Source: Escherichia coli
GTDB lineage: Bacteria > Pseudomonadota > Gammaproteobacteria > Enterobacterales > Enterobacteriaceae
Length of the DNA: 64,000 bases
Reading direction: 5' to 3' (one strand)
Assembly (NCBI RefSeq): GCF_003334815.1
Contig: NZ_QOWO01000007.1
A program made the translations under genes and the position numbers. This document shows, piece after piece, positions 63,765-63,803 of this stretch. Within the stretch, counting starts at the first letter, position 1, and each line of letters begins with the position of its first letter. The notes below the pieces were generated by a model that was given only the letters and a program-made list of their open reading frames with translations, was not told the DNA's origin and searched no databases.

Positions 63765-63803
63765 AACTAATTGGCGTTGCAGTACATGCAACGCCAATTA
63801 GTT
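63765..63803. terminator. Perfect 17-bp inverted repeat between the convergent ydbL and feaR, overlapping the feaR stop codon
   Basis: AACTAATTGGCGTTGCA-gtaca-TGCAACGCCAATTAGTT, preceded by TTTT. Confidence 0.55.

Follow-up and report, generated by a model that had tools for sequence, protein, structure and literature searches.

REP and BIME elements at convergent gene junctions are thought to stabilise the upstream mRNA. For Rho-dependent transcripts of E. coli, precise steady-state 3′ ends have been found right after stable stem-loops that carry no uridines (Dar and Sorek 2018, PMC6061677). The same study found that the RNA is trimmed back to such stem-loops by PNPase and RNase II, and that they are followed by sequence with more C than G. 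Between convergent genes, bidirectional terminators have been described as Rho-independent and collision-dependent, with a hairpin that pauses the polymerase (Ju et al. 2019; Wang et al., bioRxiv 10.1101/2022.10.23.513370). Template switching at quasipalindromes is also established in E. coli and gives paired or multi-base changes in the arms (PMC7202029).

In this study, we analyzed a stretch of 64,000 nucleotides of E. coli DNA (the window), in which a long palindrome lies between the convergent genes ydbL and feaR. An earlier note, made from the sequence alone, had proposed that the palindrome is probably a bidirectional terminator for these two genes, and had also allowed for a protein-binding site or an RNase III substrate.

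Palindrome between ydbL and feaR

The gene identities were confirmed, and ydbL and feaR are convergent neighbours as had been proposed. ydbL (+ strand) ends at 63630, and feaR (− strand) converges on it. The ydbH-ynbE-ydbL genes form an operon that ends at this 3′ boundary shared with feaR. Between the two genes we found an inverted repeat, which corresponds to 1446340-1446380 in MG1655 coordinates. The features of the locus are as follows.

63628-63630, + strand: stop codon of ydbL, 133 nt before the hairpin
63631-63801: ydbL-feaR spacer between the stop codons, 171 nt, E. coli-specific and without a paralogue elsewhere
63757-63809, + strand: extended helix, on the ydbL-sense RNA only, 23 pairs in total, −32.2 kcal/mol
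63764-63781: left arm (TAACTAATTGGCGTTGCA), 18 nt, with the outer 9 nt A/T-rich and the inner 9 nt (63773-63781) G/C-rich
63773 (G/C) and 63781 (A/T): polymorphic sites of the left arm
63782-63786: loop GTACA, 5 nt, invariant across the haplotypes seen
63787-63804: right arm (TGCAACGCCAATTAGTTA), 18 nt, 100% complementary to the left arm
63787-63788 (TG/CA) and 63795 (C/G, pairing with 63773): polymorphic sites of the right arm
63802-63804, − strand: feaR stop codon TAA, the outermost 3 bp of the right arm

The length of this repeat is far beyond chance. When the window was simulated 300 times with a first-order Markov model, the longest perfect stem had a mean of 9.6 bp and a maximum of 14, and 9e-6 stems of 18 bp or more are expected under the same null. 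Among the perfect hairpin-type palindromes in the 64 kb, the one between ydbL and feaR was the longest. The energy of the RNA hairpin was −27.6 kcal/mol on the + strand and −26.7 kcal/mol on the − strand, with a folding z of about −7.8 against shuffled sequences. On the + RNA, five extra pairs join 63757-63761 with 63805-63809 (UCUGU/GCGGA, two of them G-U) across a 2-nt bulge.

The perfect repeat of 17 bp given in the earlier note thus exists and is unusually long, but its true arms have 18 nt, one pair more. The right arm was said to include the TAA of feaR. This holds for all three bases with arms of 18 nt, but for just two of the three with arms of 17 nt. The last sense codon of feaR had been placed in the arm as well. 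We found that this codon (CGC, 63805-63807) falls outside the perfect stem and is covered solely by the weaker 5-bp extension on the + RNA.

The strain of the window is close to K-12, with at least one SNP in ydbL relative to MG1655 (window 63395, A against G). The distance from tyrR to feaR is about 24 kb shorter in the window than in MG1655, and ttcA adjoins uspF/ompN in the collinear strain 720632. Together, these two observations imply that the Rac prophage is absent from the window's strain.

Copy number

In 5426 complete E. coli genomes, the palindrome was found at a single locus per genome. Two places were reported for each genome, which is the palindrome matching itself on the opposite strand. 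A search for the same palindrome elsewhere in the genome, which had been suggested as a check, revealed no second copy in the 64-kb window or in these genomes. No paralogue was found as the origin of the 171-nt spacer, and there were no matches in viral contigs. Occurrence on plasmids or phages was considered and rejected, because the matches were mislabelled chromosomal fragments of the ydbL-feaR locus. We also rejected a dispersed repeat, a REP/BIME, a MITE and the end of a mobile element, since genomes, plasmids, phages and viral contigs gave a single locus. In Rfam, there were only sub-threshold matches to miRNA-type hairpins, with 23 bits against a gathering score of 97. Resemblances to IS30 ends and to CytR, PdhR, NsrR and PaaX motifs were seen by eye, and we take them to be coincidental.

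Termination signals and Rho dependence

An intrinsic terminator is expected to have a G/C-rich hairpin followed by a U-rich tract of 7-8 nt. The hairpin is present, with an 18-bp stem of about −27 kcal/mol on both strands. The tract is not, and the tails read GCGGAATTT (+) and AAACAGATA (−). On neither strand did we find a U-tract directly 3′ of the stem, beyond which the RNA reads GCGGAAUUU on the + strand and AAACAGAUA on the − strand. A TransTerm-style tail score was −1.6 (+) and −1.55 (−), and a typical tail scores about −5.2. When the inner 9-bp G/C-rich stem was scored alone, with the outer arm AAUUAGUUA as the tail, the value was −2.16. A consensus scan of 63000-64000 called no terminator-like site, because the U-tract is missing on both strands.

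We then compared the locus with published data on Rho. Without bicyclomycin (BCM), coverage of the ydbL strand fell from 54 upstream to 14 downstream, and with bicyclomycin it was 87 upstream and 91 downstream (Adams et al. 2021, PMC7815308, Supplementary file 2). The Rho score was 4.03 (p 1.3e-5) at MG1655 1446501 on the + strand (Adams et al. 2021, PMC7815308).

~63925 (MG1655 1446501), + strand: published peak of the Rho-termination region, antisense to feaR and about 120 nt past the hairpin, a position that is approximate given comparison windows of 800 nt and low read counts (PMC7815308)

On the + strand, these published data show bicyclomycin-sensitive termination downstream of the stem-loop. 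An intrinsic terminator should persist under Rho inhibition, and this was not the case on the + strand (87 upstream and 91 downstream with BCM). The two values imply that RNA polymerase passes the hairpin on the ydbL strand when Rho is inhibited, and strong intrinsic termination in the ydbL direction is excluded because coverage did not drop with Rho blocked. The palindrome as a self-sufficient bidirectional terminator is not supported. What stands of the earlier proposal is the place of the hairpin at the shared 3′ ends of both genes. The self-sufficient stop that it implied is not supported, as there is no U-tract and termination on the ydbL side is Rho-dependent.

Among the curated Term-seq 3′ ends, there was none at MG1655 1446xxx (Adams et al. 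2021, PMC7815308, Supplementary file 1). This is probably because both transcription units were weakly expressed in the media used. The ydbL-feaR locus had no entry in Supplementary file 3 of Adams et al. or in the TERMITe and SMRT-Cappable-seq tables, and no published discussion of the feaR 3′ end was found in a literature search. At the 53rd-81st percentile, the excess of C over G downstream of the hairpin was weak for the + strand. For the feaR strand it was moderate, reaching the 88th-97th percentile at 80-220 nt downstream.

Other convergent junctions

Convergent junctions were defined from the annotation of a collinear RefSeq genome. Seven of them have spacers, which amount to 571 nt, or 1.1% of 50 kb. 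In six of the seven, hairpins with energies between −15 and −32 kcal/mol form on both strands, and two of the six are REP elements. A U-rich tail was present in 2 of the 12 strand instances of these six junction hairpins. The two longest perfect palindromes of the window both lie exactly within convergent junctions (ydbL/feaR and tyrR/tpx). Since the junctions of the window mostly carry U-poor hairpins, the feaR palindrome is the strongest local example of a common feature.

The tyrR/tpx palindrome (29950-29984) is the second-longest, with arms of 16 nt (AATATGCCTGATGGTG-caa-CACCATCAGGCATATT), and has no clean U-tract. Rho-dependent read-through was reported for this junction, with coverage of 293/9 without BCM and 225/132 with BCM and a Rho score of 19 (PMC7815308). 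A very strong Term-seq 3′ end (MG1655 1388306, −) lies within the stop codon of tpx, so that it precedes the hairpin by about 5 nt instead of following it (PMC7815308). Rho-dependent termination takes place about 450 nt downstream.

Strong U-poor hairpins were also found at the ompG/ycjW, mppA/ynaI and dbpA/ttcA junctions (24536-24645, 36524-36573 and 51369-51496), and two of them are of the REP type. The mppA/ynaI hairpin (ACTGGCGTTA...TAACGCCAGT) has a TGGCGTT core in common with the feaR palindrome, which is probably a coincidence. Between ynaJ and uspE, the hairpin at 38116-38135 has an 8-bp G/C stem and a U-run on the uspE strand. A Rho-termination region lies just past ynaJ-uspE on the ynaJ strand (MG1655 1397980 +, antisense to uspE; PMC7815308, Supplementary file 2), and coverage there was 155/22 without BCM and 227/213 with BCM (PMC7815308). 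This hairpin is the model element of the Liu laboratory for Rho-independent, collision-driven bidirectional termination, and that description and the Rho data of Adams et al. appear to disagree.

Origin of the spacer

The palindrome was found only in E. coli. In Pseudocitrobacter (L008 and L009), Pluralibacter (L010), Raoultella (L022) and L019, whose FeaR is 82% identical, the stop codons of ydbL and feaR abut (e.g. TAAtca) with no spacer and no hairpin. The TAAtca adjacency is at L008:3400-3410 and L022:2405-2415. With abutting stops, each mRNA must end inside the opposite gene in Raoultella, Pseudocitrobacter and Pluralibacter. The relatives outside E. coli have TGA as the corresponding feaR stop. 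Kluyvera carries feaR next to a different gene. The divergent Escherichia lineage L007 (SCPM-O-B-8794, labelled E. coli and the representative of a separate GTDB species) has an unrelated spacer of 80 nt that matches no complete E. coli genome. No intermediate form was found in near relatives, among which L007 was the sole near outgroup, while L018 and L020 were ordinary E. coli. Three features are innovations of the E. coli lineage: the spacer of 171 nt, its palindrome, and the TAA with which the palindrome provides feaR.

The identity of L007 to E. coli rises from 87% in ydbH-ydbL to 94-97% in feaR-feaB. This inequality implies that the spacer lies at a junction of segments with different histories. 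It suggests an exchange of the fea cluster between lineages whose breakpoint lay in the spacer.

The first ~66 nt of the spacer are also kept in strains without the fea-paa genes. In these strains (L004:3001-3375 compared with window 63631-63700), the sequence after GAAACA at ~63696 is that upstream of ydbA. We considered whether the palindrome belongs to the feaR side, as the fea-less strains diverge at ~63697, and rejected this because the ydbL-feaR adjacency is ancestral in other genera. The fea-less strains are therefore deletion derivatives. Three different IS1 insertions were observed in the spacer of different strains, at window positions 63670, 63745 and 63782 (L005, L003 and L016). 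In ETEC1739, the IS1 follows 63782, exactly in the loop of the palindrome. Each spacer IS1 is joined to a truncated ynbC, which links the insertions to deletion of the whole fea-paa-ydbA-ynbAB region. It seems that the spacer is a recurrent hotspot of IS1-mediated deletion.

Haplotypes within E. coli

Haplotypes were counted as exact 62-mer matches in complete genomes. Five haplotypes account for 4032 of the ~4200 genomes with the locus.

K-12 type, perfect: 1398 genomes, about one third of the ~4200 with the locus
TG to CA at 63787-63788: 1319 genomes, two apical pairs lost on the + RNA
63773 G to C with 63795 G (compensated C:G) and 63781 A to T (loop-closing pair broken): 881 genomes
63795 C to G alone, mid-stem G·G mismatch: 409 genomes
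TG to CA combined with G·G: 25 genomes

All five retain the hairpin, with energies of −17 to −28 kcal/mol. The change of TG to CA consists of two transitions and still gives G·U wobbles on the feaR-sense RNA. The compensated C:G haplotype always accompanies a truncated feaR. In these ~881 genomes (L002:3172-3750), just the last 252 nt of feaR are left, fused to a fragment of paaY by an internal feaR-paaY deletion.

The G·G haplotype occurs on both major backgrounds of flanking SNPs. This suggests that G·G may be ancestral and that the pair 63773:63795 was restored twice, on different arms. Comparatively, 5 of 41 sites are variable in the palindrome and 17 of 133 in the rest of the spacer, and with diversity so alike in the two, there is no evident sign of purifying selection. 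One compensatory pair was seen among the five variable sites, which could come from chance or from template switching. The haplotype pattern is suggestive, and fits selection for pairing and template-switch mutation equally well.

Discussion

The reading that we favour, to which we give about an even chance, takes the palindrome for a U-less stem-loop at the 3′ end, specific to the lineage, which serves Rho-terminated transcripts as an exonuclease barrier or a pause site. Where the 3′ ends of ydbH-ynbE-ydbL and feaR meet, both strands encode a very stable stem-loop that lacks a U-tract, and the hairpin alone would not release RNA polymerase. The polymerase would run on, antisense, into the gene opposite, where Rho would terminate it, as the published coverage shows for the ydbL direction and as may be expected for the feaR direction. 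By analogy with the transcripts of Dar and Sorek (2018), 3′-5′ exonucleases (PNPase, RNase II) would presumably trim the long tail back to the hairpin. The hairpin would thus set and protect the mature 3′ end, and it may also pause the polymerase. The element would be a recent addition of the E. coli lineage between stop codons that abut in other genera, and in the evolution of such a quasi-palindrome, pairing would tend to be kept rather than sequence. The strong U-less hairpin on both strands, the Rho dependence beyond ydbL, the U-poor hairpins of the other junctions, the like read-through at tyrR/tpx and the hairpin kept in all five haplotypes speak for this reading. Against it, the 3′-end tables list no end at the hairpin, the excess of C over G is weak on the + strand, the palindrome is as variable as the rest of the spacer, the relatives have neither the spacer nor the hairpin, and the dominant Term-seq 3′ end at tyrR/tpx lies upstream of the hairpin there.

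It is also possible, though rather unlikely in our view, that the palindrome is a neutral by-product without any selected role. A quasi-palindrome would have arisen with the spacer at a recombination-prone junction, drifted since then, and at times been perfected by intramolecular template switching, a process that can give the paired and multi-base changes of arms mentioned above. The restriction of the element to E. coli, with abutting stops and no hairpin in the other genera, is consistent with this, and so is a junction that splits L007 segments of different histories and takes IS1 insertions and deletions. The perfect form, moreover, is present in merely 1398 of ~4200 genomes, with the same diversity inside and outside the palindrome. 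However, drift does not readily account for the two longest palindromes of the window both lying between convergent stops, in 1.1% of the sequence, or for junction hairpins being the rule in the window and a strong hairpin being kept in every haplotype. We regard as unlikely a collision-type terminator, in which the hairpin pauses polymerases from both genes and head-on or trailing collisions end both transcripts without a U-tract. The place between convergent genes and the hairpin on both strands agree with that class, whose members are described as acting through a pause at the hairpin and as not resembling intrinsic terminators. The class is also described as Rho-independent, whereas termination on the ydbL strand is Rho-dependent. 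The model needs heavy traffic, and since ydbL and feaR are both weakly expressed, collisions should be rare. The anatomy of the ynaJ-uspE model differs as well, with its 8-bp G/C hairpin and a U-run on one strand.

A weak bidirectional intrinsic terminator, perhaps aided by NusA/NusG, seems improbable. Its stem would be the inner 9-bp G/C stem (63773-63795), and the outer arm AAUUAGUUA would act as a degenerate U-tract. A/T-rich outer arms around a G/C-rich inner stem are the layout of a symmetric terminator, AAUUAGUUA is identical on both RNAs, and its four U in a 9-nt tail are just below the threshold of the scan. Inefficient intrinsic terminators backed by Rho were discussed by Dar and Sorek (PMC6061677). 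However, the tail opens with AA and its score is −2.16, where a typical one has about −5.2. The outer arm would be base-paired rather than free, and coverage of the + strand showed no drop under Rho inhibition (87 and 91). We consider a recognition site extremely improbable, either as a DNA operator for a dimeric regulator or as an RNase III site in the ydbL or feaR mRNA. The dyad symmetry is perfect. The duplex formed by the − RNA is 18 bp long, and the + RNA gives 23 pairs interrupted by a bulge. Such duplexes are near the usual size of RNase III substrates, which is roughly two helical turns. Against an operator, the palindrome extends over 41 bp, far longer than typical operators, and occupies one locus in the pan-genome. 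To our knowledge, no PaaX, FeaR, NsrR, CytR or PdhR motif fits it by eye. The half-site of an operator should be conserved wherever feaR occurs, and it was absent in Raoultella, Pseudocitrobacter, Pluralibacter, Kluyvera and L007. Because its half-sites are polymorphic within E. coli and absent from other genera with feaR, the palindrome is a poor operator candidate. The two alternatives allowed for by the earlier note, a protein-binding site and an RNase III substrate, found no positive support.

A more speculative extension, which we regard as highly improbable, would give the barrier a regulatory role. The palindrome would be a young element, born in E. coli, that supplied a new stop for feaR and whose pairing is selected on the feaR-sense RNA. 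As a pause or barrier, it would set how far the antisense RNA of the envelope operon ydbH-ynbE-ydbL reaches into feaR, and would couple the expression of feaR, the regulator for aromatic amines, to its neighbour via Rho and convergent transcription. Selection on the feaR-sense RNA would explain the twice-repaired pair in the middle of the stem and the transitions that preserve wobbles.

E. coli genes as a rule end in hairpins, terminating or not, and with its stem length the locus is an extreme example of this. It also cautions that a perfect palindrome lying between two convergent genes should not be called a bidirectional terminator by sequence alone. The haplotypes form a natural allelic series (perfect, mid-stem mismatch, compensated and two with apical loss), which could gauge the effect of stem integrity on 3′-end formation and mRNA stability. 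The five common haplotypes could also separate selection for pairing from template-switch mutation.

Comparison with known systems

The haplotypes of the palindrome resemble the quasipalindrome template-switch hotspots of the Lovett laboratory (PMC7202029) in their correlated arm changes, G·G to G:C or C:G, and in the dinucleotide TG/CA. Those hotspots are mutational reporters in the laboratory, whereas here we deal with natural polymorphism in which the direction of change is inferred. Canonical bidirectional intrinsic terminators, built of an A-tract, a G/C hairpin and a U-tract, likewise have a symmetric hairpin with A/T-rich flanks that pair mutually. Unlike them, the feaR palindrome has mixed A/T flanks (TAACTAATT and AATTAGTTA) rather than an A-run and a T-run, and shows no Rho-independent stop on the + strand. 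The collision-type terminators share with it the convergent position, the two-strand hairpin and the lack of likeness to intrinsic terminators. They are reported to be Rho-independent and collision-dependent, whereas termination on the ydbL side is Rho-dependent.

REP/BIME are also G/C-containing hairpins without a U-tract between convergent genes. However, the feaR palindrome has no REP consensus and is a single locus in 5426 genomes, whereas REP has hundreds of copies. With the stem-loops of Dar and Sorek, the palindrome shares what is expected of a protective loop, a stable stem-loop without a U-tract at the 3′ end of a gene, together with Rho termination downstream on the ydbL strand. The excess of C over G that follows them is moderate here on the feaR strand and weak on the + strand. 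It differs from them in its unusually long stem, perfect over 18 bp, in serving both of two convergent genes at once, and in its overlap with a stop codon. The ydbL/feaR hairpin is of a common, previously described kind of 3′-end hairpin.
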